From an uncultured Methyloversatilis sp. (GTDB taxonomy: Bacteria > Pseudomonadota > Gammaproteobacteria > Burkholderiales > Rhodocyclaceae), in contig CAYZII010000003.1 of assembly GCA_964478415.1 (NCBI GenBank), positions 468 to 64,467 of the forward strand: 64,000 nucleotides of DNA, read 5' to 3'. Each line of letters starts with the position of its first letter. Position 1 is the stretch's first letter. A program made the translations under genes and the position numbers. Shown piece by piece: positions 94 to 24,119 of this stretch. The notes under the pieces are model-generated. The model saw only the letters and a list, made by a program, of their open reading frames with translations, was not told the origin of the DNA and made no database searches.

Positions 94-978
94 ATGATCC
101 ATTGCGAAAACCTCTCGAAGTCTTTCCGTCGCGCGCGCGTGCTGGACGGCATCAATCTCGACATCACACTCGGGGAACGCATCGCGCTGATCGGCTCGAA
201 CGGCGCCGGCAAGACGACGCTGATCCGCTGCCTGCTCGGAGAATACATGCATGAGGGCAAGGTGACCATCGACGGCCGGGCGCCACGCACGGAGCGCACC
301 GCGGTGCTCGGCAAGATCGGCTTCGTGCCGCAACTGCCACCGCCATTGAAGATGCCGGTGGGCCAGTTGATCGAATTCTCCGCCCGGCTGTCCGGCGCTG
401 ACCCGAAACAGATCCAGGCGATCTCCGAAAGGCTCGGGCTACCCATCGATGCGATCCGCAGCCGGCCTTTCAACCGTCTCTCCGGCGGAATGAAACAGAA
501 GCTCTTGATCGCGATCGCGCTCGGCCGCAATGCCAAGCTCCTGATCATGGACGAGCCAGCCGCCAACCTCGACCCCGCGGCCCGGCGTATCTTCTTCGAG
601 CTCTTGGCCGAGCGTCAGGATGACGCGACGATGATCATCTCCAGTCACCGCATCGACGAAGTAGCCGCATTGGTCAACCGCGTGATCGAGATGGACATGG
701 GCCGGATCGTACTCGACGACAAGGTCGCCGATGACGTGTCTCTGACCGGTGTCTCCGCCTGCCGCATCGTCGTGCGACGCACCGATCCGGCGTTCGCCAA
801 GGCACTGGCCGGCTGGAAATTCACCAGCGATGCCGACGGCCTGATCTGGCAAGGCGAAGTCGCCGGCCCGGACCGCCTGCGTTTCCTGGGCATGGTTTCG
901 CGCTATGTCGCGCTGATCGCCGATCTTTCGCTGACGGAAAAAATCGGCGCTGGGGATGCGGCACGGAGGCTGCAATGA
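94..978 (+). CDS. nosF: ABC transporter ATP-binding protein, NosF-like
   Basis: 294-aa ORF with Walker A GSNGAGKT, ABC signature LSGGMKQK and Walker B LLIMDEP. 4-nt overlap with the downstream NosL-like gene. Confidence 0.8.
   Translation: MIHCENLSKSFRRARVLDGINLDITLGERIALIGSNGAGKTTLIRCLLGEYMHEGKVTIDGRAPRTERTAVLGKIGFVPQLPPPLKMPVGQLIEFSARLSGADPKQIQAISERLGLPIDAIRSRPFNRLSGGMKQKLLIAIALGRNAKLLIMDEPAANLDPAARRIFFELLAERQDDATMIISSHRIDEVAALVNRVIEMDMGRIVLDDKVADDVSLTGVSACRIVVRRTDPAFAKALAGWKFTSDADGLIWQGEVAGPDRLRFLGMVSRYVALIADLSLTEKIGAGDAARRLQ
937..964 (-). repeat. Dispersed repeat core, reverse orientation, at nosF 3' end
   Basis: Reverse complement GTGCCGCATCCCCAGCGCCGATTTTTTC, versus hand consensus GTGCCGTCCCGCCAGCGCCGAGTTTTC. 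Confidence 0.6.
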
Positions 979-2783: not shown

Positions 2784-3512
2784 ATGTCAGCCCCCCGCCA
2801 CGCGCTCGACGAAAGTTTTGGCCGCCACGCGGTGCCGCCGCAGGAGAGGCGCCACCGCATCCGGCGCATGTTCGACGCGATCGCGCCGCGTTACGACCTG
2901 ATGAACGACCTGATGAGCTTCGGCATCCACCGGCTGTGGAAACGCCGGCTGGCCAGTCGCTGTAAGGGCATGACCGGCTTCGTCGTCGATCTGGCGGGCG
3001 GCACCGGCGATGTCGCGCGGCGACTCGTGCGTGCCGACCGCATCGTCACCGTCTGCGATCCCGGCATCGAAATGATGAAAGTCGGTGCTGGAAAGACGGC
3101 ACCGATCCACTGGATCGCCGGCGAGGCCGAGGCGCTGCCCTTTGCGACCGGCAGCGTCGATCTGCTGACGATCTCGTTCGGCATCCGCAACGTCACCCAG
3201 CTTGCCGCGGCGCTTTCTGAGATCCATCGTGTAATCAAGCCCGGCGGACGCTTCGTCTGTCTCGAATTCTCGCGTCCGGCCTGGTGGCTGGCGCCGTTCT
3301 ACGATCTCTATTCGTGGCTGGTGATTCCGCGCCTCGGCGCCGCGGTGGCGCGCGCATCCGGCGCCTACCAGTATCTGGTCGAATCGATCCGGCGTTTTCC
3401 CGATCAGCGTGAGTTCGCCGATCTGCTCACCGCAGCCGGCTTTCGCGAGGTGCGTTGGGAAAATCTCTCATTCGGCATCGCCTGCCTGCATTTCGGAACC
3501 AAGGCCGCATGA
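2784..3512 (+). CDS. ubiE: Demethylmenaquinone/ubiquinone C-methyltransferase (UbiE/MenG family)
   Basis: Internal ATG 2784 of ORF 2421..3512. RMFDAIAPRYDLMNDLMSFGIHRLWKR plus SAM motif VVDLAGGTGD. The upstream part of the ORF overlaps the tlpA frame and is Arg-rich noise. Confidence 0.85.
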   Translation: MSAPRHALDESFGRHAVPPQERRHRIRRMFDAIAPRYDLMNDLMSFGIHRLWKRRLASRCKGMTGFVVDLAGGTGDVARRLVRADRIVTVCDPGIEMMKVGAGKTAPIHWIAGEAEALPFATGSVDLLTISFGIRNVTQLAAALSEIHRVIKPGGRFVCLEFSRPAWWLAPFYDLYSWLVIPRLGAAVARASGAYQYLVESIRRFPDQREFADLLTAAGFREVRWENLSFGIACLHFGTKAA

Positions 3513-4432
3513 AGCTCGAACCGCCCGGCGCGCTGATCGCATCGCCACCACCGCCGTGGCGCATCTGGTGGCTGGCGGCTCGTCCGCGCACCTTGCCGCT
3601 CTCCCTGACACCGGTGCTGGTCGGTCTGTCACTCGCTTGGGCAGAGGGCGCGACGCCGCGGGTGCTGGCCGCGCTGGCGACGCTGGCTGCGGCGCTCCTG
3701 ATCCAGATCGGCACCAACCTGTACAACGATGCCGCCGATTTCGAGCGCGGCAACGATTCGCCCGGCCGGCTGGGCCCCTTGCGTGTCACCGCCGCTGGTT
3801 GGGTGAGCCCCCGGCAGGTACGTTTCGCTGCCTATCTGGCTTTCGGCAGCGCCTTTGGGCTCGGCACCACCCTCGCCTGGCTCGGCGGCTGGCCGATCGT
3901 TCTCATCGGTCTGGCCGCGCTGGCCGCGGGGCTGGCCTATTCCGGCGGGCCGCGGCCGATCTCGCATACGCCGTATGGCGAACTGTTCGTCTGGTTCTTC
4001 TTTGGTGTGCTCGCCGTCGCCGGGACACACTGGCTTCAGGCGCAGCGCCTCTCTCCCACCGCGCTGCTCGCCGGCGCGGCGCTGGGCCTGCCGGCGGCCG
4101 CGGTGTTGCTCGTCAATAATCTGCGCGACCTCATCCCCGACCGCGCCGCCGGCCGCGTGACGCTGGCCGCGCTGCTGGGCGATCGGCCGGCACGCGACAC
4201 TCATGCGGTGCTGATGATCGCGCCATTCGGTTTCCTGCCCGCGCTCGCCGCGCTGCTGCCCAACAGCCCCGGCGTCTGGCTTGCGCTGGTCGCGCTGCCG
4301 GCCAGCCTCGCCGTGGTCAAACGGATGCGCAGCGCGCACGGGCATGCTTTCAACGAGGTGCTGGCCGCCACGGCGCGCGCCCAGTTCCTGTTCGGTCTTT
4401 TCCTCGCCATCGGTTTTCTGCTCCCATTATGA
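3509..4432 (+). CDS. menA: 1,4-dihydroxy-2-naphthoate polyprenyltransferase
   Basis: ATG 3509 overlaps the ubiE stop (ATGA). UbiA-superfamily motif [14 protein letters not shown]. Many hydrophobic segments. Confidence 0.85.
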
Positions 4433-5256: not shown

Positions 5257-5442
5257 GCACGCGGAGTGTCTTATGATGGCGAACCTCTGCATAACGGCAC
5301 GAGCGGGATGGGATGCAAGGCGTTTGGTGCACAGCATGCGAGACATATCAAGTAGATAGGCGAGCATCCGAGCACCGCGCAACGCAGCAGACCGCCCGCA
5401 CAGCAAGTTAGGCAGAGGTTTCAAGGCGATAAGGAGCAGAAT

Positions 5443-5673
5443 ATGACCTCTTTCGATCGCATCACCATTAATCCCGCCATCATGAACGGTCAGCCCACTA
5501 TCCGCGGCATGCGCTTGACCGTCCGCCGCGTCGTCGAAGCGGTGGCGCTCTATCCCGACCGCGCCGAACTGTTACGCGAATATCCCGAGCTCGAAGAAGA
5601 AGATATTCGCCAGGCCTTGGCGTTTGCCGCGAGCAATCTCGCGGATGAAACGCTACCCCTGCTGGCGGCGTGA
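5443..5673 (+). CDS. DUF433-family antitoxin-like protein
   Basis: 76 aa. ITINPAIMNGQPTIRGMRLTVRRVVE is typical of DUF433. GTGA overlap with the downstream PIN-like gene. AAGGAG Shine-Dalgarno sequence upstream. Confidence 0.7.
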   Translation: MTSFDRITINPAIMNGQPTIRGMRLTVRRVVEAVALYPDRAELLREYPELEEEDIRQALAFAASNLADETLPLLAA

Positions 5674-6038
5674 TCTCGCTGCTTTTCGATCAGGGGTTGC
5701 CACGCTCCGCAGCGGTGGCGTTACGGGAGGCAGGATGGCTGGTTACGCATGTCGCCGAAATCGGACTATCCAAAGCTAGCGATTCTGCCATCATCGACTA
5801 TGCGCGCACCCACGGCTGCCATATCGTCACACTGGATGCCGATTTTCATGCACTGCTGGCGATCTCCGGCGCCCGTGCGCCTTCTGTGCTGCGGCTGCGT
5901 ATCGAAGGACTCAGAGCCACTGAACTTGCCGATCTGCTGAAACGTCTCTGGCCGCAAATCTCGGCGGCCATCAGCGCCGGCGCGCTCGTCACCGTGACGG
6001 AAAAACAAGTGCGCATCAAAGGCTTGCCGATCGCGTGA
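5670..6038 (+). CDS. DUF5615/PIN-like (Mut7-C-like) putative toxin
   Basis: 122 aa with GTG start. FDQGLPRSAAVALREAGW...IVTLDADFHALLA pattern. Paired with the DUF433 gene. Confidence 0.6.
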   Translation: MISLLFDQGLPRSAAVALREAGWLVTHVAEIGLSKASDSAIIDYARTHGCHIVTLDADFHALLAISGARAPSVLRLRIEGLRATELADLLKRLWPQISAAISAGALVTVTEKQVRIKGLPIA

Positions 6039-7111
6039 CCACGACCCTTCTCATTGCCGAGATCATTCCCTATCGCCTGCCGCTCAAGCGTCCCTGGGTC
6101 GGGGCGTCCGTGACGCTGACCGAGCGGCGCGGGGTGTTATTACGGCTCGTCGATGAGGACGGCCTGGCAGGCTGGGGCGATTGTGCGCCACTGCCCAGCC
6201 GCAGGGATCCGCAGGCGGTCATCGATGCGCTCGCCACCTGGTCGTGCCGTCCCGCCAGCGCCGAGTTTTCGAAGTGGCTCGGCGCCCGGCGGGACGATTT
6301 CTTTTCTGCCAGCGCCGAGTTTCAACATTTGCCTGCCGAAGCGCGCTGGGCGATCGAAACCGCGCTGGCGGATCTCGCCGCGCAGCGTGCCGGCCTGCCG
6401 CTGTGGCGGCATCTGGGCGGGACGTCGAATGAGGTCGAAGTCAATGCCGCGCTCGGTCCTCTCGACGAAGCATTGCCCGAGCGCCTCGTCGCCGCGCAGG
6501 CGCAAGGCTATCGCATCGGCAAGATCAAGGTGGGCCTGGCGCCTGTCGAAGAGGAGATCGCCCGCCTGCGCGCGCTGGATACGCCACTCTCGCTGCGTCT
6601 CGATGCCAATCGCGCATTCGACGATGATGCGGCGGAGCGTTTCCTGACGGCGCTCGCCGACCTGCCGATCGAGGCGGTCGAAGAGCCGTTTCAGCGGCCG
6701 TCGTTGGCAAAACTCGCCGCGCTGCAGGCGAGGCTCCCCTTCCCGCTCGCGCTCGATGAATCGCTGCCTGACTTTCCCCTCGCCGCAGTGATTGAAGCCC
6801 GCGCAGTACGTCGCCTGGTGCTGAAACCGGCGCGGCTGGGCGGTATCGCTGCGACGCTAGCGATCGCGCGCGAGGCGCAGGCGGCCGGCATCGAGGTCGT
6901 GCTCACCTCGGTAGTCGATTCGGCGGTCGGTGTCACTGCCGCCACCCATCTGGCCGCGGCACTCTCGCCCGATCTCACACATGGCCTGGGCACCAGTGCG
7001 TGGCTCGCGGAGGATGTCGCGCAGCCGCTGCCCATCCTCGGCGGTTCGATGAAACTGCCAGAGGCAGCGGGATTAGGTCTCACCCCGGCAACGGTTCGGG
7101 CCGGTGGATGA
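6035..7111 (+). CDS. menC: o-succinylbenzoate synthase (enolase superfamily)
   Basis: GTG 6035 overlaps the toxin stop. Motifs YRIGKIKVG, LRLDANRAF, VEEP. Carries the 83-nt repeat at 6244-6326 in frame. Confidence 0.8.
   Translation: MTTTLLIAEIIPYRLPLKRPWVGASVTLTERRGVLLRLVDEDGLAGWGDCAPLPSRRDPQAVIDALATWSCRPASAEFSKWLGARRDDFFSASAEFQHLPAEARWAIETALADLAAQRAGLPLWRHLGGTSNEVEVNAALGPLDEALPERLVAAQAQGYRIGKIKVGLAPVEEEIARLRALDTPLSLRLDANRAFDDDAAERFLTALADLPIEAVEEPFQRPSLAKLAALQARLPFPLALDESLPDFPLAAVIEARAVRRLVLKPARLGGIAATLAIAREAQAAGIEVVLTSVVDSAVGVTAATHLAAALSPDLTHGLGTSAWLAEDVAQPLPILGGSMKLPEAAGLGLTPATVRAGG
6244..6326 (+). repeat. 83-nt composite repeat element, in frame inside menC
   Basis: The core is followed by GGCGGGACG (6288-6296), complementary to CGTCCCGCC (6248-6256). 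GCCAGCGCCGAGTTT is repeated exactly 54 nt downstream (6254 and 6308). Confidence 0.85.
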
Positions 7112-9464
7112 AGAAGCCCTGCCCGAAGCCGATGCCGATCTCGACGAGCTTGTCCTGGATGTCCTGATTCTCGACCCACTCGGCGATCACGTCGAGGGAT
7201 AGATCGCAGCCGATCTGGGCGATCGCATTGACGATCACGAAATCGGTCTTCTCTTCATGCACGGCACGCACGAAGCTGCCGTCGATCTTGATCGCGCTCA
7301 CCGGCAGCGTCTTCAAATAGGCAAACGAAGACAGCCCTGCCCCGAAATCATCGAGGCAGAAACGGCAGCCGAGTCGGGAAAGCTCGGCGATCAGGCGCTG
7401 CGCCTCGCCCAGGTGTTGAATCGCTGCCGTCTCGGTGATCTCGAACATCAGGCGTTTCGGCTCGATGCGGCTGGCTTTAAGCTGCTGCTGCAGGTAAGCA
7501 GTGAAATCGGCCTGCGACAACGTCCCGCCGGACAGATTGATCGCATAGCTGGCGCGATCCTCCGGATGGCGGGTCACGTAATCGAGAAAGGTCTCCAGCA
7601 CCCAGCGGTCGAGCAGATGGGCATAACCAAACCTTTCGACGGCGGAGAGCACCCGGCCGGGCGGAACCGCGATGCCGTGCTCGTCGAGCACGCGTAACAG
7701 GATTTCATAATGTTCGCGGTCGTCTTGCGCCTTCAAAGGCATGATGCGCTGCCGATACAACCGCAGACGCTGTGCGGCGAGGGAGGCGTCGAAACGCGCC
7801 GCCCATTGCATCTCTTCGTCGAGGGCGCGTATGCCGGCATGGGAAGGTGAATGCACCTCGACGCGGCCGCGTCCCTGGTTCTTCGCGTGATAGCAGGCTG
7901 TGTCGGCGCGCCCGAGTACCTCGCTGATGGTCATCTCAGGCTCCAGCCTGGCGATGCCGATGCTGGCGCCGATGTGGAAATGACGCGCTTCATATCGGAA
8001 ACGATGGGCTGCGATCTGCGCAACGATACGTTGCGCGATGCCGACACCTTCCTCGAGTGCGCAGTCGAACAACAGTAAACCGAATTCGTCGCCGCCGATG
8101 CGTGCCAGCAGGCTGCGATCGTTGTCCCCTTCGCCCGGCGTCGGCACGCAGACGCGCATCAGCTCGACGATCTCGACCAACAGCGCATCGCCGGCGGCGT
8201 GGCCACAGGTGTCATTGACGAGCTTGAACTGGTCGAGGTCGATGTAGCAGAACACATGGCAGCGTCCATCCTCGCGCACCTGACGCAGCGCCCGCTCGAG
8301 GCGCCCTTCCAAGGCACGGCGGTTCGGCAAGCCGGTGAGCGGGTCATGGAACGCCATGCGCCGCAATTCCTTGAGCAGCGCGCGCCGCTCGGAATCGTCG
8401 CGGAACACCAACACCACACCGCAAGTCTCCCCGGATGTATCATGGGCCACCGAGGGCACGATGGCCGCCGAATCATGCACCGGCAGTTCGCGGCCATCGC
8501 GCGCCAGCAGCAGCGTGTGGTTGGCCATTGCCTGCGGTTTTCCGCTGCGCAGCGCGAGCCGTGCCGGGTTGGGCTGGGGCTGGCGCGTATCCTCATGGAT
8601 CAACGGCATCACGGTTTCGATCGGCTTGCCGCGCGCCTCGGCAATGGACCAGCCGGTGAGCGCTTCGGCAACCGAATTCATGAATTGCACGTCGCCATCG
8701 GCATTGGTCACCACCACGCCATCGCCGACCGAGGCCAGCGTGATGCGCCAGCGCTCCTTTTCAGTGCCCAGTTCGTCGATCAGCTGCTGCAGCCGGTCAC
8801 GCGCCTGATTCAACACCTGGGCCGTCTCGGCCAGTTCCGGCGGCGCATTGGGCGATAGCTCGATACGCGCAGAAAGATCGCCACTGCTGCGGCGACGGGC
8901 CGAGGCGCGGATGGCTTCCAGCGCAGTGAAATTCGCGCGCAGGATCCAATGCATCGCCAGTGCGAGAAGAATGAGTGCACTGAGCGCGGCGAGCATGCCC
9001 GCGCCGAGCAATCGCCACAGGCGTTCTTCGACCGCATCGGGCCGGATCGTGACCACGAGTTGGCCATAGTCACGCCCCCCGATGACGATTCTCTCCTCGC
9101 TGTCGAGAGGAACAAGACCCAGCATCGAAGCAAACCATTCGGGGCGTTGCAGCGGCGGCGGTGCATCCTCGGCCTCGATGGACACGCCATCGCCACTGTA
9201 GCGCACTGCATGAGCCTCGGCCGTGGCCACCTCGCGCCGCATCAGTTGTTCGACGGTCGTGTAATCGTAAAGAATCAGTGGTTCGACGAGGGCCGTCGCC
9301 AGCAGGCGCGCCTCTCGCTGGGCGGTCTGGGTCAAGACCTGGCTGCCGATATCCTTGGCAATCCGTAAGATGACTGCGCCGCCTGTCAGCAACAACAACG
9401 CGCTGATCACCACCAGCGCGATCAGCAGTCGGCTGCGCAACGACAGACGGGCAAGCAGATTCAT
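7080..9464 (-). CDS. Membrane sensor HAMP-PAS-GGDEF-EAL (c-di-GMP turnover)
   Basis: 794 aa with an N-terminal TM segment. RIGGDEFGLLL (GGDEF). EAL-domain motifs EITETAAI, DDFGAG, KIDGSFV. Confidence 0.9.
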   Translation of the reverse strand: MNLLARLSLRSRLLIALVVISALLLLTGGAVILRIAKDIGSQVLTQTAQREARLLATALVEPLILYDYTTVEQLMRREVATAEAHAVRYSGDGVSIEAEDAPPPLQRPEWFASMLGLVPLDSEERIVIGGRDYGQLVVTIRPDAVEERLWRLLGAGMLAALSALILLALAMHWILRANFTALEAIRASARRRSSGDLSARIELSPNAPPELAETAQVLNQARDRLQQLIDELGTEKERWRITLASVGDGVVVTNADGDVQFMNSVAEALTGWSIAEARGKPIETVMPLIHEDTRQPQPNPARLALRSGKPQAMANHTLLLARDGRELPVHDSAAIVPSVAHDTSGETCGVVLVFRDDSERRALLKELRRMAFHDPLTGLPNRRALEGRLERALRQVREDGRCHVFCYIDLDQFKLVNDTCGHAAGDALLVEIVELMRVCVPTPGEGDNDRSLLARIGGDEFGLLLFDCALEEGVGIAQRIVAQIAAHRFRYEARHFHIGASIGIARLEPEMTISEVLGRADTACYHAKNQGRGRVEVHSPSHAGIRALDEEMQWAARFDASLAAQRLRLYRQRIMPLKAQDDREHYEILLRVLDEHGIAVPPGRVLSAVERFGYAHLLDRWVLETFLDYVTRHPEDRASYAINLSGGTLSQADFTAYLQQQLKASRIEPKRLMFEITETAAIQHLGEAQRLIAELSRLGCRFCLDDFGAGLSSFAYLKTLPVSAIKIDGSFVRAVHEEKTDFVIVNAIAQIGCDLSLDVIAEWVENQDIQDKLVEIGIGFGQGFFIHRPEPLPG

Positions 9465-11131: not shown

Positions 11132-12328
11132 ATGTCCCTCCTGCACCACTGGCTTTCCCGCGCCGCCGCCGACCAACCTGCACTGATCCTGCCGGATGGT
11201 GCCACGCTCCGCTATGGCGATCTGGCCAAGCAGGCCGGAAAGACTGGCCTGCAAGCAATCGACGGCGATGCCGGCACACTCGCCCGCGGGCTGATCGAAA
11301 CCGCGCTCGGCGGCGGCACGGCCTTTCCCCTGCCGCCGACACTCGATGCTTCTCACCGCGACAGGCTGATCAGACTGGCCCGTGGCGCCACCGATCCGAA
11401 GCTGGCATTGATCATCGCCACCAGTGGCTCGACGGGGGAACCCAAAGCAGTGAAGCTTTCCTGGCGTGCGATCGCCGCAGGCGCCCGCATCAGCGCACGG
11501 GCAGTGGATCTATGCCCCGGCGATGCCTGGCTCGTCTGTCTGCCGCTCTTTTTCGTTGGCGGCGCGATGATTCTCTACCGTACCTTACGCGCCGGTGCCA
11601 CCGTCGTGGTGCAGGAAGGGTTCGATGTAGCCCGGGTGGCGGATGCACTCGTCGCGCAGCGCATCACCCATCTGTCGCTGGTGCCGGCGATGCTGGCGAA
11701 ACTGATCGAGTGTGCCATGCCGCCAGCGCCGAGTTCGAAATGTGTGCTGGTCGGCGGCCAGGCGCTCTCCCCGACACTGGCGGAAAAGGCACTTGCCGCC
11801 GGCTGGCCGCTCAGGCTGTCCTACGGGATGACCGAGACCTGCGCCACCGCGCTGATCGACGGTCGTCCCCTGCCCGGCGTGCGTGTGCGCCTGTCTGCGG
11901 CGGGCACACTCGAAATCGCCACACCGGCCCGGATGAAAGGTTACCTGGGAGGGTCGCCATCCGGCGAGTGGCTCACGACGCAGGATCTCGCGCAGATCGA
12001 TCCAGACGGCCGGGTGACGATCCTGGGCCGCGCTGACGAGATGCTGATCTCGGGCGGTGTGAATCTCCATCCGCTGGAGATCGAGGCCACGCTCTCGCGC
12101 TGTCCCGGCGTGCGCGAAGCCGGCGTCACCGGTTTGCCCGACCCGCTTTGGGGTGATCTGATCGCCTGCGCCTACGAGGGCGAGGCGCAGGAAGATGCCG
12201 TCGCCGACTGGTGTCGCGCCTGCCTGCCTTCCTCAAGGCGGCCTCGCCGGCTGCTGCGCGTTCCCCGTCTGCCGCGGCTGCCTTCCGGCAAACTGGATCG
12301 CCGCGCCCTACGGCGTCTTTGGTCATGA
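11132..12328 (+). CDS. menE: o-succinylbenzoate-CoA ligase (short AMP-binding enzyme)
   Basis: 398 aa with AMP-binding motif IIATSGSTGEPKAV. ATGA overlap with menF. Contains a repeat core at 11712. Confidence 0.75.
   Translation: MSLLHHWLSRAAADQPALILPDGATLRYGDLAKQAGKTGLQAIDGDAGTLARGLIETALGGGTAFPLPPTLDASHRDRLIRLARGATDPKLALIIATSGSTGEPKAVKLSWRAIAAGARISARAVDLCPGDAWLVCLPLFFVGGAMILYRTLRAGATVVVQEGFDVARVADALVAQRITHLSLVPAMLAKLIECAMPPAPSSKCVLVGGQALSPTLAEKALAAGWPLRLSYGMTETCATALIDGRPLPGVRVRLSAAGTLEIATPARMKGYLGGSPSGEWLTTQDLAQIDPDGRVTILGRADEMLISGGVNLHPLEIEATLSRCPGVREAGVTGLPDPLWGDLIACAYEGEAQEDAVADWCRACLPSSRRPRRLLRVPRLPRLPSGKLDRRALRRLWS
11712..11740 (+). repeat. Dispersed repeat core inside menE
   Basis: GTGCCATGCCGCCAGCGCCGAGTTCGAAA. 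Translated as CAMPPAPSSK. Confidence 0.65.
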
Positions 12329-13638
12329 TCGACTGGCATAGGCTCGCCGAGGCACTTGCTTCACTCGCCGGAAGCGCCCAGCCGGCGCGTTTGCTGAGCG
12401 TCAGCTGCGCACTGCCGCGCTGGCCGGCGGTCACGCCAGTCGGTGAATGGTGTCACTGGCAACGACCCGAGCAAGGCATGCGGCTTTTCGCTGTCGGCTG
12501 TGCCGCCTTCGTCGAAAGCGCAGGCGCGGGGCGTTTCGCGGCGCTCGCCGCCGCACAGCGTGGACTGGCCAATGCTTGGCAGGCCGACGCGACCAGTTGC
12601 AAGCGTGCTTTCGTCGGCTTCGCTTTCACGCCGGAAGGCGGCGCACCCTTCCCGAATGCCCGCCTCTGGGTACCCGAACTGTTGCTTTGCGAAGAGCACG
12701 GGCGGATCGCCCTGACACTGAGCTGTGCGGCAGAACAAGCGGGCAGGGCAGTGCCGCGTTGGCGCAAGCTGTGGCGGGAGTTGACCACGGCATGTGCCGT
12801 CCCGCGAGCGCCGATTTTCCGCATCCAGCGCAATCCCGTTGCCGATCAGGCTTTTCTGGCGCGCGGCCAGGCCGCACTCGCGGCGATCAGACAAGGCGCT
12901 GTCGACAAACTGGTGCTGACCCGTACGTTGCGGGTAACGATGGACCAGCCCATCATGCCGACAGCGTTGATCGGGGAACTGGCACGACAACATCCCGCTT
13001 GTGCGGTGTTCGGCCTCGGCAACGGGCGGAGGAGTTTCCTCGGCGCCTCGCCGGAAACCCTGCTCGCGATCGACAAACAAACTGTAATGGTCGACGCACT
13101 CGCCGGCACGGCCTGGCAGGACACGGTGCAAACGCTCGAAGACGAAAAGAACCGCCGCGAACACGACTGTGTCGCCACCGCGATCATCGAGGCGCTTGCC
13201 GGAGTGTGCAGCGAGATCGATCTGCCGGCAAATCCAGAAGTGATGCAGCTTTCCGGGCTGAGCCACCTGCGTCGCCGTGTCCGGGCGTGCCGTCTGACCG
13301 CAACGAACGCATTCGATCTCCTTGCGCGGCTGCACCCGACCCCAGCCGTCGGCGGCACGCCCACCGCTGACGCGCTCGATTGGCTGGCCGGCCACGGCGA
13401 TACCCGCGCCGCCTGGTATACGGGCGGCTTCGGCTGGATCGACACCAGTGGTGATTGCGACATCGCCGTCGCGTTGCGCTGTGGGCTGTTCGAAGGCTGC
13501 GAAGCGACGCTCTATGCCGGCGCAGGCTTCGTCGCTGGTTCCGATCCAAAGCAGGAGCTCGCCGAAACCGAGGCCAAACTCACAGCGCTGCTGAATGCCT
13601 TGGCGACGCTCGGTCGCCCCAACCGGGCCGTCGCATGA
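12325..13638 (+). CDS. menF: Isochorismate synthase
   Basis: ATG 12325 overlaps the menE stop. Chorismate-binding motifs LHPTPAVGGTP, YAGAGFVAGSDP. Confidence 0.85.
   Translation: MIDWHRLAEALASLAGSAQPARLLSVSCALPRWPAVTPVGEWCHWQRPEQGMRLFAVGCAAFVESAGAGRFAALAAAQRGLANAWQADATSCKRAFVGFAFTPEGGAPFPNARLWVPELLLCEEHGRIALTLSCAAEQAGRAVPRWRKLWRELTTACAVPRAPIFRIQRNPVADQAFLARGQAALAAIRQGAVDKLVLTRTLRVTMDQPIMPTALIGELARQHPACAVFGLGNGRRSFLGASPETLLAIDKQTVMVDALAGTAWQDTVQTLEDEKNRREHDCVATAIIEALAGVCSEIDLPANPEVMQLSGLSHLRRRVRACRLTATNAFDLLARLHPTPAVGGTPTADALDWLAGHGDTRAAWYTGGFGWIDTSGDCDIAVALRCGLFEGCEATLYAGAGFVAGSDPKQELAETEAKLTALLNALATLGRPNRAVA
12794..12821 (+). repeat. Dispersed repeat core inside menF
   Basis: GTGCCGTCCCGCGAGCGCCGATTTTCCG. 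Translated as CAVPRAPIFR. Confidence 0.7.
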
Positions 13639-15347
13639 GTACCGGGGCGCGCAACCTCGCCTGGGCCGATGCCCTGATCGCCGCGCTTGCGGCCAGTGGT
13701 CTGCGTCATGTCGTGCTCTCCCCGGGCGCACGCTCTGCGCCACTCGCCGTCGCCTGTCTGCGGCGGCCGGAAATCATCTGCCATGTCATCAACGACGAGC
13801 GCGCCGCCGGCTTCTTTGCAGTGGGACTGGGCAAGGCAAGCGGCCAGCCTGCGCTGGTGCTGACCACCTCCGGCACCGCCGCGGCGAATCTGCTGCCGGC
13901 GATCGTCGAAGCGAATCTCTCCCACACCCCGCTGATCGCCGTCACTGCCGACCGTCCGCCGGAAATGCTCGGCTGGGGGGCGAACCAGACCATCGACCAG
14001 GTGAAGCTCTTTGGTGATCAGGTGCGCGCCTTTCATACCCTGCCGCCGCCGGACGAGGCGTTCCCACCACGATTTCTGACGACGTTGGCCGCCCGGCTGG
14101 TCGAAACGGCGCTGTTTCCCCACGCCGGGCCGGTGCATCTGAACGTCCCGTTCCGGGAACCCTTGCTGCCCGAGGTCTTACCCGCGCCGCCCGCGTTACC
14201 ACCCGCGCTCGAACTGCATCCCCAGCAGCCAGCACTGCCATCTGACCTCGATACGGTCGCCGCCCGTCTCCAGGCCCGTCCCGGCGTCATCCTCTGCGGG
14301 GAAGCGCGTTATCCCGCCGGCTTTGCCGCCGCCGTGACCCGGCTCGCCGCGCGGCTCGAAGCGCCGATCATCGCCGAAGCCCTGTCCAATCTGCGTTTTG
14401 GCGCTCATGACAAATCACGCATCAGCGCTGATGCAGCGCGTTTCCTGCGCCACACCGCGCCGCCCGCCCCGGCCTGGGTGCTGCGCTTCGGCGCCTTTCC
14501 CGTCTCGCGCACGCTCGAACGCTGGCTGGCGGATCTGGCCGAAACCGAACACCTGCTCGTCGCGCCGCCCGGCAGTTGGCCGGACCCACTGCATCACAGC
14601 GACACACTGTTGCGCGGTGACCCTTTGGACATCGCCGCAGCCCTGGCCGAGAGGTGCCGTCCCGCCAGCGCCGAATTTTCGGAGCGACACGGCGGCCGAC
14701 GGGACATTGTCATTTCTGCCGGTGCCGAATTCCGTCTGGCCTGGCAACGTGCCGAAGCTGGCGTCACGGCTGCCGAAGACCTGCCTTTCTTCGAAGGGAC
14801 GGTCGCGCACCGGCTTCTCGCTGCGCTGCCCGCCGGCGCGCATTGCTTCATCGGGAACTCGCTGGCGATCCGCGCCGTCGATGCCTACTCTGGAAAGAGC
14901 GACAAGCCCCTCACCCTTTACGGCAACCGTGGCGCATCGGGAATCGATGGCAATCTCGCCACCGCGGCAGGAATCGCCGCAGCCAGTGGCGCGCCGATCG
15001 CCCTGCTCGTCGGTGACCTAAGCCTGCTGCACGATTGCGCCAGCCTCGCGCTGCTGAGGGAAAGAAACGCGCTGATCGTCGTGCTCGATAACGGCGGCGG
15101 CGGCATCTTCGACCATCTGCCCTTCGCCCGGATGCTGCCCCCGGCACTGCTCGAACGCGGCTTTATTGCCAAACCCCACGCGGACTTCGCCGCCCTGGCC
15201 CGCGCCTTCGATCTCGCCTATGCGGAAGCGGCCGATCTGCAGGCGCTCGATGCAGTGCTTGCCAAGGCGCTCCAGCACGGCGGCACCTGGCTGCTGCGCG
15301 TCGTGATCGACCGCGGCGCGAGCCGCGCCGGTTTCACTGGTGCTTGA
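13635..15347 (+). CDS. menD: SEPHCHC synthase (ThDP-dependent)
   Basis: ATG 13635 overlaps the menF stop. N-terminus NLAWADALIAALAASGLRHVVLSPGARSAPLA. ThDP motif GNRGASGIDG. Carries the 83-nt repeat at 14654-14736. Confidence 0.9.
   Translation: MSTGARNLAWADALIAALAASGLRHVVLSPGARSAPLAVACLRRPEIICHVINDERAAGFFAVGLGKASGQPALVLTTSGTAAANLLPAIVEANLSHTPLIAVTADRPPEMLGWGANQTIDQVKLFGDQVRAFHTLPPPDEAFPPRFLTTLAARLVETALFPHAGPVHLNVPFREPLLPEVLPAPPALPPALELHPQQPALPSDLDTVAARLQARPGVILCGEARYPAGFAAAVTRLAARLEAPIIAEALSNLRFGAHDKSRISADAARFLRHTAPPAPAWVLRFGAFPVSRTLERWLADLAETEHLLVAPPGSWPDPLHHSDTLLRGDPLDIAAALAERCRPASAEFSERHGGRRDIVISAGAEFRLAWQRAEAGVTAAEDLPFFEGTVAHRLLAALPAGAHCFIGNSLAIRAVDAYSGKSDKPLTLYGNRGASGIDGNLATAAGIAAASGAPIALLVGDLSLLHDCASLALLRERNALIVVLDNGGGGIFDHLPFARMLPPALLERGFIAKPHADFAALARAFDLAYAEAADLQALDAVLAKALQHGGTWLLRVVIDRGASRAGFTGA
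14654..14736 (+). repeat. 83-nt composite repeat element, in frame inside menD
   Basis: Same length and architecture as 6244-6326. 66/83 identical by hand alignment; the first 21 nt are identical. Second half-core lies 54 nt downstream. Confidence 0.85.
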
Positions 15348-17421
15348 GCAAAGCCAGGCACGCTTCGCCCGGCAGCGGTTTGCCAAACAGATAGCCTTGC
15401 AGAACGTCACACCCCAGGCGGACGAGAAAATCGCGCTGCGCTTGTGTCTCGACGCCTTCAGCCACCACCCGCAGCCCGAGATTTTTCGCCAGCGCAATGG
15501 TCGCCGAGCAAATCGCCGCATCGTTCGCATCGCTTTCCAGATCGCAGACGAAAGTACGGTCGATTTTGAGCACCTGGATCGGCAGGCGCTTCAGATAGGC
15601 GAGCGACGAATAGCCGGTACCGAAATCGTCGATGGCGAGCGCCACGCCCAGGTCGCGCAACGCCCCGAGCTGCCGCACGGCTTCTTCGGGATCGGCCATA
15701 GCCACGGACTCGGTGATTTCGAGTTCCAGATCGCCGGCCGCAAGACCATGTCGCTCGAGCGCGGCGAGAATCTCCTTGCCCAGACCGGCATCCCGCAACT
15801 GGTGTGCGGACAGATTGAGCGCAAGACGGACGTTTGAAACGCCGGCGGCCCGCCAGGCGGCGAACTGCCGGCAGCCCTCTTCGAGCACCCATTGCCCAAG
15901 CTGCCCGATCAGACCGGCTTCTTCGGCGATAGTGACGAAGCGCTCCGGAGAAATCCAGCCGCGTTGCGGATGCTGCCAGCGCACTAGCGCCTCGAAAGCG
16001 ACGATCCGGCCGGTACACGCCTCGATCTGCGGCTGGAAATGCAAGTGCAGCGCCCCTTTGTCCAGCGCAACGCGCAAATCGCGCTCGAGTGCCAGGCGCT
16101 CGGCCGCGGCTTTGGTGAGGTCCTCGGTGAAGAAATGCAGCTGGTTGCGGCCATGCTCTTTCGCGTAATACATCGCGGTGTCGGCGTGTTTGAGCAGCGT
16201 GCCAGCATCCTGGCCGTCGCGCGGGAAGAGGCTGATGCCGATGCTCGGCGTCGAATGAAGCAGCTGGCCGTCGAGCCGATACGGTCTGGCGAGCGCCTCG
16301 AGGAGCTTCGTGCTGGCATTGAGCGCATGAATTTCCGCCTCCAGGCCGGTGAGCACGACGACGAATTCGTCACCCCCGAGGCGCGCGACGATGTCCGATT
16401 CACGCACACAGGCCTGCAGCCGTCGGCCGACTTCGACGAGCAGCTGATCGCCGACATGATGGCCGAGCGTATCGTTGATATTCTTGAAGCGGTCCATGTC
16501 GATCAGCACCAGCGCCACCTGTTTGCCATCGCGCCGCGCCGTGGCGAGCGCCTGTTCGAGCCGGCTACGCAGGCTGTAGCGATTGTCGAGCCCGGTCAGC
16601 GCATCGTGATAGGCGAGATGCTCGATATGGCGCAGCATGGCCTGGCGCTCGAGCGCACGCTGGTAACCCTGCCTTCCCACCCAACCGATGCCCACCAGCC
16701 CCACCAGCCAGATCACACCATGACCGATGCCGAGATCGATTGCGGTCGCTCGTATGCGTTGGTAATAGGGTTCGAGTGGCAGATTCACGCCGGTGGCGCC
16801 GCGCATGTCGCCAACCTGATAGCCGAGGATGCCGTGACAGCGCACGCAGACTTCCTCCATGAACCAGGCCTTCAGATAGCGTAGATAAGGCTTGCCATCA
16901 ATTGCGGCAATTTCCCAGACCTCATTCTTGATGCCGAGTTCGAATTCTTCGAGCTGTTTCTTCTCCCAAGCATCAGGGGCATTGATCGGATTGAGAAAGC
17001 GCAAGCCGACGATGCGGCCGCGTGCTCCGCCGGTCATCGCCGCATAGTCGTCCATCATCTCGCGCACCATCATCGCCGGCGCGCGTAAGGTGAGCTTCAT
17101 GCCGTCGGTCGTCACCACATCGCGTTCCGGAATATGATTCAACAGCGGAGAAGGCTGCGCCTGCGGTGTCACGCGCACATAGACGCCGGAGTGTTTCATC
17201 GCCCAGCACCGGAAAGCCATGTCCTTGTCGCGCACCGCTCGCGCTTCGGCATAGGCCATCTCGAGCGTCTGCCGCTCATGACTGCGTAATCCCCAATACA
17301 AGGACGCGGCGACGATCAGCGTCCATAACACTGCCCCGGCCACGGCCAGACGCACCGCAGTCTTCGGGTTTTCTTTGGGAGAGAGGCTTTTCTCAGGCAT
17401 CGAGGTATCGTATTGGCGCAT
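15334..17421 (-). CDS. DUF3365 (CxxCH haem-type sensor)-GGDEF-EAL protein
   Basis: CVRCHG motif in a periplasmic-like N-domain. RLGGDEFVVVL, FEALVRW, DDFGTGYSSL. Start uncertain (ATG 17421 or 17400). Confidence 0.85.
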   Translation of the reverse strand: MRQYDTSMPEKSLSPKENPKTAVRLAVAGAVLWTLIVAASLYWGLRSHERQTLEMAYAEARAVRDKDMAFRCWAMKHSGVYVRVTPQAQPSPLLNHIPERDVVTTDGMKLTLRAPAMMVREMMDDYAAMTGGARGRIVGLRFLNPINAPDAWEKKQLEEFELGIKNEVWEIAAIDGKPYLRYLKAWFMEEVCVRCHGILGYQVGDMRGATGVNLPLEPYYQRIRATAIDLGIGHGVIWLVGLVGIGWVGRQGYQRALERQAMLRHIEHLAYHDALTGLDNRYSLRSRLEQALATARRDGKQVALVLIDMDRFKNINDTLGHHVGDQLLVEVGRRLQACVRESDIVARLGGDEFVVVLTGLEAEIHALNASTKLLEALARPYRLDGQLLHSTPSIGISLFPRDGQDAGTLLKHADTAMYYAKEHGRNQLHFFTEDLTKAAAERLALERDLRVALDKGALHLHFQPQIEACTGRIVAFEALVRWQHPQRGWISPERFVTIAEEAGLIGQLGQWVLEEGCRQFAAWRAAGVSNVRLALNLSAHQLRDAGLGKEILAALERHGLAAGDLELEITESVAMADPEEAVRQLGALRDLGVALAIDDFGTGYSSLAYLKRLPIQVLKIDRTFVCDLESDANDAAICSATIALAKNLGLRVVAEGVETQAQRDFLVRLGCDVLQGYLFGKPLPGEACLALLKHQ

Positions 17422-17434
17422 CGCCATCTTAACC

Positions 17435-17448
17435 TTGACTTTCATCAA
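17435..17448. promoter_or_regulatory. FNR/Dnr/NnrR-type box TTGAC-TTTC-ATCAA
   Basis: 9/10 match to TTGAT-N4-ATCAA. Lies in the divergent region between the DUF3365-GGDEF-EAL gene and the nosD paralog. Confidence 0.55.
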
Positions 17449-17482
17449 CGCCAAAAGGGGCGTCCTGCGGTCAAATTGTGGC

Positions 17483-18724
17483 ATGCCGTCCCTTTTCCCA
17501 CCGCGACGTCCAGCGATGCTCCCTGCTGCCCTCGTTGGCCTGCTACTTCCGCTGTTTGCGATGGGAGTCGCGGATGCGGCACCCACACTTCAGGCGCTCA
17601 TCGACGCCGCCGCGCCGGGTAGCATCGTTCGCGTGTCCGCCGGGGTGCATGCCGGTCCAATCGTCATCGCGAAACCGCTGATCCTCGATGGTGCGGCTCA
17701 GGCCGAAATCCGCGGCAACGGCCGCGGCACGGTCGTGCATATTCGTGGCAGCGGTGTCACCCTCCGCGGTTTCACGATCCGCGGCAGCGGCAGTTTGCAC
17801 GATGCCGTCGATGCCGGCATCCTCGCCGAGGGCAGTGATCATCTGATCGAAGACAACCGCCTGGAAGACGTGCTGTTCGGCATCCACCTGAAACAGACGC
17901 AACGCACGCGGGTGCGTCACAACGCGGTGATCGGCAAGAACGCAGAACTGTCGATGCGCGGTGATGCACTGCGCATGTGGCACGGCGCCCACAACCGCAT
18001 CGAAAACAACCGTTTCCGCCGTGCCCGTGATCTCACCTTCATCAATTCACGGGACAGCGTCATCGCAGGCAATCATTTCAGCGACGGACGTTACGGCATG
18101 CAGATCGTCTTCTCGCCACGTTTGACGATCGAAAACAATCGCATCGAACAGATGGCCACCGGCATCGTCGTGCTCTACTCGCGCGATGTGACGCTGAGCG
18201 GCAACTTGATCGCCCATGCGCTCACCGGCGGCGGTGCCGGCATTGTGTTCAAGGAAAGCGACAGCGGTCGCGTGATCGGTAACACCGTGCTGCATTGCAC
18301 GGTGGGGCTCAAAGTCGACGCTCCGCCGGAAAAGATCGGCCTGCTCGAGGTTCGTGACAACCGCTTCGCGCACAACATCAATGGGCTGTTCTTTTACGGC
18401 GAGGCCGGTGGCCATCGGTTCGCACGCAACCGTTTCGAGAACAATCTCACCACGGTGGCGATCAGCGGCGTCGGCGCCGCAGCGGCGAATGTCTGGCACA
18501 ACAATCGTTGGGATGAATACCAAGGCTTCGATCTCGATCGTGACGGCATCGGCGATACCCCGTTTGAGGCCTGGCTGTTCGCCGACCGTATCTGGATGGA
18601 GACGCCAATGGCGAGTTTCTTCCGTAACTCGCCGGTGCTCGAGCTGATCGATTTCCTCGAACGCCTGGCGCCGTTTTCGGCGCCGTACCGGATACTATCC
18701 GATCCCGCTCCCCTGATGCAGTAA
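17483..18724 (+). CDS. NosD-like periplasmic beta-helix (copper-enzyme maturation family) protein
   Basis: Signal peptide LLLPLFAMGVADA. Repeated parallel beta-helix units (IEDNRL, IENNRF, IAGNHF, IENNRI, LSGNLI, IGNTVL). Alternative start ATG 17516. Confidence 0.75.
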   Translation: MPSLFPPRRPAMLPAALVGLLLPLFAMGVADAAPTLQALIDAAAPGSIVRVSAGVHAGPIVIAKPLILDGAAQAEIRGNGRGTVVHIRGSGVTLRGFTIRGSGSLHDAVDAGILAEGSDHLIEDNRLEDVLFGIHLKQTQRTRVRHNAVIGKNAELSMRGDALRMWHGAHNRIENNRFRRARDLTFINSRDSVIAGNHFSDGRYGMQIVFSPRLTIENNRIEQMATGIVVLYSRDVTLSGNLIAHALTGGGAGIVFKESDSGRVIGNTVLHCTVGLKVDAPPEKIGLLEVRDNRFAHNINGLFFYGEAGGHRFARNRFENNLTTVAISGVGAAAANVWHNNRWDEYQGFDLDRDGIGDTPFEAWLFADRIWMETPMASFFRNSPVLELIDFLERLAPFSAPYRILSDPAPLMQ

Positions 18725-22253: not shown

Positions 22254-24119
22254 ATGGAAGAATGGATCGGCAGCCTCTGGGATCGCTGGATCAGGGAGGT
22301 GGCGCGGCGCGACTATCCGGCCGCGGCCGTCGAACTGAAAGATCTCGAAAAAACGCTCGGCGTGATTTTCCGTGCGCTCGGTGGCGATCCGGGCTTGCGC
22401 ATCGCCGCGGCGGCGGATCAGGCGCATGGCGCACGGCGGCGGTTTTTGCAGCGCATCGCTGGCATCCACGATCGTGCTGCCCATGCCGCCCTCGATCACG
22501 AAACCCTGCGCCTGCCCCCGCGACTTGCCGTCCTGCCAACGCCGAGTTTGAACCGCGACCTCTACGTCTGGCTCGTGGCGCTGGCGGGAAGCAGCGGCCC
22601 GGCGCTGGAGCGATTCGCGCATGAATGGATCGTGCAGAACCAGTTTGCGGTCTGGGCCACCTTGCAACGCTATCCCGGCCTGAAGATGCGCTACCAGCGG
22701 CTCGTCGAGGCCCATCTGGCGGAACGGATCGCCCCGGAAAAGATGCCGCCCGATGAAGCGGCGCAGGAACGGGCAGTGCGGCAGGCGCTCATCGGTCCGG
22801 GAAGTGTCACAGAACTGCCCCCTTTGCGGCGTGCAAAGGCAAAAGCGCTGCAGCCGGTGCCGCTATGGCTCTACCCTGCACCCCCGGCTGAGATGAAGCG
22901 ACGCAGGGGGAGCCCTACCGCGCACGAAACCGAAGACGCGGAACAGCCGAAGGAGCAGCAGGTCGAGAACAAGCGCTACCAGGCCGAGCGTGGCGAGATG
23001 CCCGAGAACGAGTCGCCGCTGATCCTGTTGTTTCGCGCCGAAAGCTTGCTCTCTTGGGCCGAGTATCTGCGCGTCAACCGGGCGCTCGACGAAGACGAAA
23101 ACCCTGATGCCGGCCGCGCCGCCGAGACGCTCGACAAGCTCACGCTGGCGGAGGGCGAGCAGCGCGTCGCCTCGAAGGTGCGCTTCGATCTCGACCTGCC
23201 GGCGGCGGCCGAGGACGATCTGCCGCTCGGGCCGGGCATTCCGCTGCCCGAGTGGGATTGGAAGCGCCGCGTGATGAAACCCAACTTCTGCCGCCTGCAG
23301 ACGATGGTGGCACGCGAGAGTACGCCGCAGCCGCTGCCCGAACACCTGCGGCGACACGCCAGGAAGCTCGAGAATCAGTTCGCCGCGCTGGCGCCGGTGC
23401 GGCGCTGGCAAAAGGCCCAGCCGGAAGGCGCGGAGATCGACATCGACGCCTGTGTGCGCATCGCCGCCGATCGCCTGGCGGGCTTTCATTTTTCCGGGGC
23501 GGGCGCCTACCTGAACCATCGTCCGACTGAACGCGACCTCGCCTGTCTGGTGCTCGCCGATCTGTCGCTGTCTACCGACGCCTATGCCAATGACGCACAA
23601 AAGGTGATCGACGTGATCCGCGACAGCCTGATGCTGTTCGGCGAGGCACTGTCGGCGACCGGCGATGCCTTCGCCTTTTACGGCTTCTCGTCGCTGAAAA
23701 GGAGCTTCGTGCGCTTCCATGAGATCAAGCCCTTCGACCGGCCACTCGATGCGGTGGCGCGCGGGCGCATCGCCGCATTGAAACCCGGTTACTACACTCG
23801 CATGGGCGCGGCAGTGCGCCGCAGCACCCAGCTCCTCAACCAGCAGCCGGCCAACCGTCGTCTGCTCTTGATCCTCTCCGACGGCAAGCCGCACGACATC
23901 GATCTCTACGAAGGCCGTTACGGTATCGAGGACACGCGCAAGGCGCTCATCGAAGCGCGCGAGGAGGGCATCAAGCCCTTCTGTGTCACGATCGACCGCG
24001 AAGGCGCCGGCTATCTGCCACACCTCTTTGGACCGGCTGGCTACACGGTCGTCAGGAAGCCCGAAGACCTGCCCGACCGGCTGCCGCTGCTTTATGCCCA
24101 ATTGACGGGGAATGCGTGA
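22254..24119 (+). CDS. norD: NorD-type von Willebrand factor A protein (NorQ partner)
   Basis: 621 aa. C-terminal VWA domain with MIDAS-like ADLSLSTD. ILSDGKPHD. Adjacent to norQ. Confidence 0.85.
   Translation: MEEWIGSLWDRWIREVARRDYPAAAVELKDLEKTLGVIFRALGGDPGLRIAAAADQAHGARRRFLQRIAGIHDRAAHAALDHETLRLPPRLAVLPTPSLNRDLYVWLVALAGSSGPALERFAHEWIVQNQFAVWATLQRYPGLKMRYQRLVEAHLAERIAPEKMPPDEAAQERAVRQALIGPGSVTELPPLRRAKAKALQPVPLWLYPAPPAEMKRRRGSPTAHETEDAEQPKEQQVENKRYQAERGEMPENESPLILLFRAESLLSWAEYLRVNRALDEDENPDAGRAAETLDKLTLAEGEQRVASKVRFDLDLPAAAEDDLPLGPGIPLPEWDWKRRVMKPNFCRLQTMVARESTPQPLPEHLRRHARKLENQFAALAPVRRWQKAQPEGAEIDIDACVRIAADRLAGFHFSGAGAYLNHRPTERDLACLVLADLSLSTDAYANDAQKVIDVIRDSLMLFGEALSATGDAFAFYGFSSLKRSFVRFHEIKPFDRPLDAVARGRIAALKPGYYTRMGAAVRRSTQLLNQQPANRRLLLILSDGKPHDIDLYEGRYGIEDTRKALIEAREEGIKPFCVTIDREGAGYLPHLFGPAGYTVVRKPEDLPDRLPLLYAQLTGNA
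22525..22553 (+). repeat. Dispersed repeat core inside norD
   Basis: TTGCCGTCCTGCCAACGCCGAGTTTGAAC. Translated as LAVLPTPSLN. Confidence 0.65.

Follow-up and report, generated by a model that had tools for sequence, protein, structure and literature searches.

A 54-nt hairpin module lies in frame within menC and menD and is found only at a dispersed 24-nt word of the Rhodocyclaceae

A repeated segment inside menC was analyzed in a 64,000-nt stretch of DNA from an uncultured Methyloversatilis sp. (contig CAYZII010000003.1, positions 468 to 64,467 of the forward strand), which is called the window below. The segment (6244-6326) is a composite of two nested repeats, a short dispersed word of 24 nt and a 54-nt module that was found only at words and never apart from them. 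The module varies from 0 to 3 tandem copies per site, and each copy is translated into 18 additional residues, with at least three frames in use. Words arise and are kept in place, with no change in length, in segments of proteins that tolerate them. On balance, the module is probably a selfish repeat similar to the Rickettsia palindromic elements (RPEs), which lands only in the word and spreads by word-anchored copying and slippage; with less certainty, the word itself may be under a drive of the DNA uptake sequence (DUS) type.

The preliminary description had quoted an 83-nt sequence at 6244-6326, and its letters were found there exactly. The near-copy in menD (14654-14736) is of equal length and aligns without gaps at 82% identity, with flanks unrelated between the copies. 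Both copies stand in the same codon phase of their open reading frames (ORFs) and are translated as CRPASAEFSKWLGARRDDFFSASAEFQ in menC and CRPASAEFSERHGGRRDIVISAGAEFR in menD. The exact 15-nt direct repeat GCCAGCGCCGAGTTT starts at 6254 and 6308, with the spacing of 54 nt that had been given. An inverted repeat of 9 bp with a 31-nt loop had also been reported; the repeat exists, but it is twice as long (9+9 bp, with one bulge and a 10-nt loop). The view of all 83 nt, or 27 aa, as the inserted piece had to be given up, since the first 24 nt are kept in orthologs and the ortholog alignment leaves an insertion of only 54 nt, or 18 aa. Syntenic loci were compared in L118, a metagenome-assembled genome (MAG) very close to S. 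thermophila, and in L169, the complete genome of the cultured Sulfuricystis multivorans. The two host genes and the parts of their composites are as follows.

6035-7111, plus strand: menC ORF, the host gene, encoding o-succinylbenzoate synthase (OSBS) of the enolase superfamily, as judged from the translation, PDB matches (enolase-superfamily/OSBS chains) and ortholog names.
6245-6268, plus strand: word in menC, TGCCGTCCCGCCAGCGCCGAGTTT, encoding CRPASAEF; ancestral and not inserted, a perfect match to the family consensus.
6269-6322, plus strand: inserted 54-nt (18-codon) module in menC, consisting of loop, inverted word, tail and duplicated 15-mer; an 18-residue gap in orthologs.
6278-6296, plus strand: inverted word copy CTCGGCGCCCGGCGGGACG, the 3' arm of the hairpin with the family-wide A-versus-CC bulge, as seen in the fold and in the arm of all 20 units collected.
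6308-6322, plus strand: duplicated half-word GCCAGCGCCGAGTTT closing the module, an exact repeat of 6254-6268.
13635-15347, plus strand: menD ORF (SEPHCHC synthase), host of the second composite, with PDB matches to MenD (E = 2.7e-88) and an alignment with L118 MenD.
14655-14678, plus strand: word in menD, TGCCGTCCCGCCAGCGCCGAATTT; a solo word lies at the orthologous site of L118 menD (18828).
14679-14732, plus strand: 54-nt module in menD, decayed and with a weakened hairpin (fold z = -0.13); an 18-aa gap against L118 MenD, nhmmer E = 3e-13.

The register of the module in menC is ambiguous by 15-17 nt, and 6254-6307 is equivalent to 6269-6322. The nhmmer model of the unit matched 6254-6306 in menC with E = 7e-14. 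The same menD insertion is present in S. multivorans menD (L169 18524/18578).

The extent of the insertion was given by the close orthologs. The exact MenC of the window is present in the protein collection (P0001), and its relatives with 55-69% identity are mostly 329-341 aa long, compared with 358 aa in the window. Among the 22 MenC orthologs from related genera, at least 14 carry a single word at the corresponding position and read ...W-A-CRPASADF-x-x-LP..., while MenC of the window reads CRP[ASAEFSKWLGARRDDFFS]ASAEF, an insertion of 18 residues. The ortholog P0002 has three extra 18-residue units. A homologous segment in other MenC proteins had been named beforehand as evidence against an insertion; it was found for the first 24 nt, where CRPASAEF is ancestral, and counts in part against the insertion as first described. 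The suggestion of a lineage-specific insertion with presence/absence polymorphism agrees with the MenC, MenD and MenE alignments and with the loci of the relatives. Regarding copies beyond menD, the full composite has no other copy in the 64-kb window, and copies in other genes were found in related genomes only. In distant PDB homologs of MenC and MenD, the segment falls in a variable region; PDB alignments alone suggested no insertion, and the close orthologs reveal it. In addition, two MenC orthologs (P0004 and P0018, alignment columns about 85-145) carry inserts of other lengths, +22 aa and +9 aa, where the word lies. They may represent modules that have decayed, shifted frame or lost a part, and the MenC site would then be a hotspot.

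The inserted 54-nt units at the three syntenic loci were counted as follows.

menC: one unit in the window, three in L118, none in S. multivorans (word decayed to CRPAAAEF).
menE: none in the window, three in L118, none in S. multivorans (word absent too).
menD: one unit in the window, none in L118, one in S. multivorans.

The gaps in the protein alignments are clean, with 18 aa in MenC and MenD and 54 aa in MenE, the last at the solo word of the window (S. thermophila MenE is P0121). Period-54 arrays lie in L118 menC, at the same site as in the window, and in menE, and arrays overall have 1-3 extra units. Units are near-identical within arrays, and the loop and tail differ between arrays. In L118, the units of menC are the same as unit 1 of menE, a sign of transfer from one locus to another. 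Moreover, the difference between the MenE proteins of S. thermophila and L118 is confined to unit 3. An assembly or chimera artefact could be considered for a window that is probably from a MAG; however, an identical MenC is encoded in the independent Logan assembly SRR11582145, which refutes it, and the element is also shared by several MAGs and by two cultured species with complete genomes. Chance resemblance of menC and menD is excluded by the counts of the word in the window given below. The probability left to either explanation is negligible.

The effect on the protein was assessed with an AlphaFold model of MenC built on the ortholog alignment (mean predicted local distance difference test score, pLDDT, 88; predicted template modelling score, pTM, 0.88). 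The pLDDT was <50 only at residues 75-92, which are the insert. In the model, helices 59-70 and 101-118 of the N-terminal capping domain flank the insert, and the placement on an OSBS structure proposed earlier gave a low-confidence internal loop, the only one in the model. The rest of the enzyme looks intact in the model apart from the insert, and the insertion site appears compatible with the protein fold, a predicted surface loop in the modelled MenC. The other hosts carry the module in linkers or termini (PcnB C-terminus, RseA, ZipA, FlhF).

Twenty units from 10 arrays were compared. The module consists of the last 15 nt of the word, a loop of ~10-12 nt, the inverted word GGCGCCCGGCGGGACG and a tail of ~11 nt, and all 10 arrays begin at a perfect word. 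In each of the 20 units, the inverted word deviates from an exact reverse complement by the same change, T to CC, and an A/CC bulge results. The loop-proximal pair follows the dialect of the genome, with GAG/CTC in the window and S. multivorans and GAC/GTC elsewhere. The hairpin forms between the resident word and the inverted word of the module; the 24-mer alone is without internal complementarity, and pairing needs the separate inverted copy. As single-stranded DNA, the menC segment folds into a stem of 9+9 bp that has a single bulge and encloses a loop of 10 nt (-23.9 kcal/mol, z = -3.6 against shuffles). The fold scores ranged from z = -3.6 to -5.6, the latter for the L118 array, with the decayed menD copy outside this range.

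These features bear on the possibility that the 54-mer is a true non-autonomous transposable element, similar to a miniature inverted-repeat transposable element (MITE), an RPE or a doublet of repetitive extragenic palindromes (REPIN), and that a trans-acting enzyme recognizes the bulged hairpin and inserts it site-specifically into the word. The bulge kept in every unit is in agreement with this, as are the direct-repeat-flanked insert always at a perfect word, the presence/absence polymorphism at several genes and the arrays alternating in orientation like bacterial interspersed mosaic elements (BIMEs). Many unrelated genes are occupied, as with RPEs (PMC10969869). On the other hand, unlike in a MITE, the unit ends are without terminal inverted repeats, the inverted repeat being internal (word against inverted word), and the flanking repeat is not a variable target-site duplication, because it is always the same 15-17 nt of the word. 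The tandem near-identical units resemble slippage, and no transposase, REP-associated tyrosine transposase (RAYT) or integrase was found among the Pfam-scanned ORFs of the 64-kb window. Transposition by such an enzyme is thus regarded as rather unlikely compared with word-anchored copying.

Other known elements were also compared. The R''/R' boxes of integron attC sites (RYYYAAC ... GTTRRRY) were absent from all 20 units, and genuine attC sites, found in L132, differ from the word, so an attC or integron origin was ruled out, which also speaks against the transposable element. A search against Rfam yielded no match for the window at the gathering threshold and, for 6100-6500, nothing with E <= 1, which rules out a known structured RNA family. 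Repetitive extragenic palindromes (REPs) are small palindromes, almost exclusively extragenic and largely species-specific. REPs, BIMEs and REPINs are reportedly mobilised by RAYT transposases, according to Bertels and Rainey in 2011 and Nunvar and coworkers in 2010. The module hairpins are similar to them in forming alternating-orientation tandem arrays with variable copy number, as in BIME-2. However, the module unit is not self-complementary, the copies are mostly intragenic and the word is shared across genera. REP identity of the word was excluded, since most of its copies in the window lie inside ORFs and it is not a palindrome in itself. Like coding-region minisatellites or variable number tandem repeats (VNTRs), the module has a period that keeps the frame, near-identical units and a copy number that varies between close relatives. 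Ordinary VNTRs are locus-specific, whereas the same module unit occurs at at least 20 unrelated loci and is anchored on a genome-wide word.

To find the hosts of the module, its translations in five frames were searched against proteins. This gave 22 housekeeping proteins, all from S. multivorans, S. thermophila or Rhodocyclaceae/Pseudomonadota MAGs, including MenC, MenE, DUF3108, MurA, PcnB, PseG-like, QueG, RseA, FlhF, MltA, TatD, IspH, TrpC, RibD, a chromate transporter, ZipA and an RNA methyltransferase. Three frames are used in these proteins (ASADSPKQGGARRD..IS, AVPPAPTFRSESAPGGT.SF and KVGAGGNESVPPGADS.R), and the peptides are unrelated between frames. Those of the used frames are flexible, with a high content of Gly, Ala, Pro and Ser. 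None of the 22 proteins had either of the two Arg-rich open frames of the module, which suggests that module copies are filtered at the peptide level. Furthermore, a recB-like ORF of another MAG (L014) also contains the composite, in a different frame. All ten modules with a DNA-level gene assignment, and most words of the window, are inside ORFs.

The 18-residue peptide might then be a selected protein feature, such as a linker or interaction motif shared by enzymes, because it is translated and tolerated in many proteins and its composition is that of a flexible segment. This explanation is effectively refuted and is given very little credence: the same DNA yields unrelated peptides in three frames, which rules out a functional peptide repeat, the conservation is at the nucleotide level, the copy number differs between close orthologs and the insert was modelled as a disordered loop.

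Six further arrays were detected when metagenomes were scanned for the unit junction, all of them from the metagenome Ga0209172; the scan used an exact-match pattern, which probably misses diverged units. The nhmmer unit model found no further full module in ~1.3 Mb of word-bearing loci from other genera, so the distribution of the module is much more limited than that of the word.

The word TGCCGTCCCGCCAGCGCCGAnTTT comprises the first 24 nt of the segment. It is non-palindromic and sharply bounded, with 12-14 copies in the window. Repeat finding showed that the first 25 nt of the segment recur throughout the window and that the flanks of the copies are unrelated. The 15-mer occurred 12 times with <=2 mismatches, compared with 0.40 expected, and the 25-mer 7 times with <=3 mismatches, compared with 0.00 expected; with <=5 mismatches, the 24-mer gave 14 sites. 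Within the window, the words are in sense in menC, menE, menF, menD and the VWA gene, in antisense at the 3' end of the ABC ATPase gene, in carA, in hypF and at the hycI/hybE junction, and intergenic after purC and at 24224. The words outside the two composites are as follows.

940-963, minus strand: solo word at the 3' end of the ABC-transporter ATPase gene; the orthologous site is kept in L118 and S. multivorans.
3078-3101, minus strand: degenerate solo word, 4 mismatches.
11713-11736, plus strand: solo word in menE (frame AMPPAPS); L118 and S. thermophila have three 54-nt modules at the orthologous site.
12795-12818, plus strand: solo word in menF (isochorismate synthase).
22526-22549, plus strand: solo word within the gene of a VWA-domain protein.
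24224-24247, plus strand: degenerate intergenic word, the 5' part of which pairs with a downstream inverted copy in a 9-bp hairpin.
28977-29000, minus strand: solo word in carA, encoding KLGVGYTA (interdomain linker), with no length change against E. coli CarA.
44713-44736, plus strand: intergenic solo word abutting the purC stop codon.
53232-53255, plus strand: solo word in hypF.
55731-55754, plus strand: solo word at the hycI/hybE junction.
62941-62964, minus strand: degenerate solo word, 3 mismatches, in a histidine-kinase gene.

Solo words are not insertions, because CarA does not differ in length from E. coli CarA and word-less MenC orthologs (P0033, P0056) are equal in length to those with a solo word. 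The same lengths rule out solo words as footprints of an inserted element. At the ABC-transporter site, the words are kept in the window, L118 and S. multivorans although the flanking DNA has diverged, indels included. Read directly from the sequence, the word is free of stop codons in every frame.

Two further observations concern the words of the window. In the intergenic region 24215-24290, the degenerate word (TGCCATGCCATC...) and its downstream inverted copy have a fold of z = -3.7, and the TGCCATGCC variant of this word is also present in the menE word at 11713. At position 21 of the word (e.g. 6265, 14675, 12815, 44733), only G, A or T was found in the window and never C, compared with C in 114 of 135 copies of other genomes (about 85%), and the inverted arm of the module co-varies with this position. 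Judged from the sequences, the G/A/T of the window looks like a dialect difference from the other genomes.

The word is common in the family. Its consensus is TGCCGTCCCGCCAGCGCCGA[C/G]TTT, and many Rhodocyclaceae/Sterolibacteriaceae genomes have about one per 5-15 kb. A scan for TGCCGTNNNGCCAGCGCCGANTTT with one genome per species gave at least 117 stretches, almost all from Rhodocyclaceae-type genera among the matches listed. The genera with the word include Sulfuritalea, Methyloversatilis, Azonexus, Propionivibrio, Accumulibacter, Sterolibacterium, Rugosibacter, Sulfurisoma and Sulfuricystis. When the ascertained copy was discounted, each genome group had 0.06-0.22 further words per kb. In a position matrix of 131 instances, the information was confined to ~25 nt with sharp edges and random flanks, indicating a sharply bounded word and not the end of a longer element. 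Exact matches outside the Rhodocyclaceae were observed in Tepidicella, Tepidimonas, Tepidiphilus and one 'Gammaproteobacteria' MAG (L013, L076, L094, L002); these may reflect chance, horizontal transfer or mis-binning.

The orientation of the word showed no bias relative to local GC skew (98 versus 94 in 192 instances). A replication-polar motif similar to Chi, KOPS or Ter was thus rejected, and the 10:2 plus-strand excess of the window is a sampling effect. Neighbouring pairs of words were in the same orientation in 59 cases and in opposite orientation in 43. The word is used in all six reading frames plus intergenic DNA, according to crude gene calling based on GC content at third codon positions (GC3). 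A role of the word as a transcription signal was excluded.

The word also occurs in integron cassettes of L132, an IMG/VR contig. Five paralogous cassettes of ~316 nt (one of 385 nt) lie at 883-2239 on the minus strand, each with one 24-nt word, and bear classical attC sites (GCCTAAC...GTTAGGC) separate from the word. The adjoining ORF (3489-4058, plus strand) has an N-terminus that is integron-integrase-like, judged by eye.

The population features of the word were compared with those of the Neisseriaceae DUS and the Pasteurellaceae uptake signal sequence (USS). The DUS has 12 nt and the USS core 9 nt, both occur at a density of about 1 per kb, and ComP is the DUS receptor in Neisseria. These systems were reportedly treated by Frye and coworkers in 2013, Bakkali and coworkers in 2004 and Findlay and Redfield in 2009. 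Like DUS and USS, the word is short and non-palindromic and has hundreds of copies per genome (extrapolated). It is found in both orientations without replication polarity and family-wide with dialects, and it lies in genes at tolerant segments, without indels and with stable orthologous sites. The word also shares the 7-mer TGCCGTC with the 5' end of the DUS ATGCCGTCTGAA; the chance probability of this is estimated at about 0.01, and it is only a lead. In contrast to DUS and USS, the conserved stretch is 24 nt long, the density is lower and inverted terminator pairs are few. By this analogy, the word is probably maintained by a DNA-level drive of the DUS type, which is held less firmly than the conclusions on the module.

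A further step would be to regard the word as the signal of a third DUS/USS-type system, in the Rhodocyclaceae/Sterolibacteriaceae and possibly distant kin of the neisserial DUS, with the module as a selfish signal-multiplying derivative. To our knowledge, DNA uptake sequences are established in only two bacterial families, and we know of no uptake bias, competence or receptor in Rhodocyclaceae/Sterolibacteriaceae bacteria. The likeness to DUS and USS makes such a system possible, and it is put forward only tentatively. If the word were an uptake signal, the module might even be positively driven, with the arrays as self-amplifying uptake boosters. A module contributes a direct half-word and an inverted, nearly complete word, so that alleles with arrays would be taken up more often; the word has DUS/USS-like population features that the modules multiply, and arrays turn over rapidly between close relatives. 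However, the inverted word has the fixed T to CC change and the direct copy is without the 5' third of the word, so that neither is a full word. The module is also restricted to one small lineage, whereas the word is family-wide, and a literature search pairing uptake sequences with Rhodocyclales or Rhodocyclaceae found no paper. Positive drive of this kind is improbable. No description of the word or the module was found in the searchable literature, where the motif string matched unrelated papers only, and repeats were not a subject in the titles and abstracts of the Sulfuricystis literature.

The preferred explanation, word-anchored copying of a selfish repeat, would proceed in a few steps. 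In this view, the module would parasitise the word as selfish or neutral DNA and reach further copies of it through copying that depends on homology. Priming would occur from a 3' end in one word on a module-bearing word elsewhere, 54 nt would be copied, and re-annealing would follow through the duplicated 15-mer; the route could be template switching, synthesis-dependent strand annealing or gene conversion. Arrays would later expand and contract by slippage. Survival of the module would be confined to loops, linkers and termini that tolerate its length (3 x 18), its stop-free sequence and its Gly/Ala/Pro/Ser-rich translation.

Several points weigh against this explanation. Every step of the copying is inferred, and anchors of this length (24 nt and 15 nt) are short for a RecA-dependent process. 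An HUH/RAYT-like or integrase-like enzyme encoded elsewhere in the genome is a serious rival, and the invariant A/CC bulge and the arrays always starting at a perfect word also fit recognition of the structure by a protein. As for the word, its uptake-signal role is suggested by likeness to DUS and USS, just a few of 273 instances form the inverted pairs that are typical of DUS/USS terminators, and its frame and coding classification is crude, with about half of the sites left unclassified by the GC3-based caller.

We know of no report that RPEs need a pre-existing target word or form tandem arrays. The module, always inside one 24-nt word and half made of it, with 0-3 tandem copies, is different from RPEs in this respect. 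RPEs are palindromic repeats lying in frame in many unrelated housekeeping genes (Ogata et al. 2000/2002, as summarised in PMC10969869). The resemblance pointed out in the preliminary description is upheld, as the module belongs to a palindromic repeat lying in frame within otherwise normal enzymes. In the terms of that summary, it is similar to RPEs in forming a hairpin, being read through as an extra peptide, occupying fold-compatible sites and being lineage-restricted and variably present. The RPEs summarised there are ~100-150 bp long and form about ten families in an alphaproteobacterial intracellular parasite, whereas the module has 54 nt and its hosts are free-living sulfur-oxidising Betaproteobacteria (Sterolibacteriaceae/Rhodocyclaceae), the RPE consensus being compared by description only. 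The module works like an RPE but is not a member of that family.

The module-word pair is of interest for several reasons. Its strict word dependence makes the module a tractable case of one repeat parasitising another, and the pair is also a case of short dispersed homologies seeding insertions into proteins. Read-through palindromic repeats in frame in housekeeping genes are best documented in Rickettsia. The module would be a mechanistically different in-frame selfish palindrome in free-living, cultivable sulfur oxidisers (S. multivorans, S. thermophila), in which gain, loss and inter-locus transfer of arrays could be followed experimentally. If the word is an uptake sequence, natural transformation and its specificity would become accessible in a family with Accumulibacter, Sulfuritalea, Azonexus and Methyloversatilis, and the module would be an uptake-signal parasite remodelling housekeeping proteins. 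In addition, the word and the module will confuse annotation, ortholog alignment and MAG assembly in this group.

Some minor observations were made in the neighbourhood of menC. A DUF433/DUF5615 (PIN-like) pair lies between menB and menC at about 5440-6038 (plus strand), immediately upstream of the menC start and overlapping it, and is probably a toxin-antitoxin module. The pair is kept there in L118 and S. multivorans, with a HicA toxin close by in L118. An exact 12-nt tandem duplication (ACGACCTGATGA x2) was observed at 2893-2916 of the window and at 6991-7014 of L118, where it falls inside a UbiE-type methyltransferase gene. Two large GGDEF-EAL signalling proteins (7080-9464 and 15334-17586, both minus strand) interrupt the men cluster, an arrangement kept in relatives; one has PAS/HAMP/LapD-MoxY domains and the other a Tll0287-like sensor.

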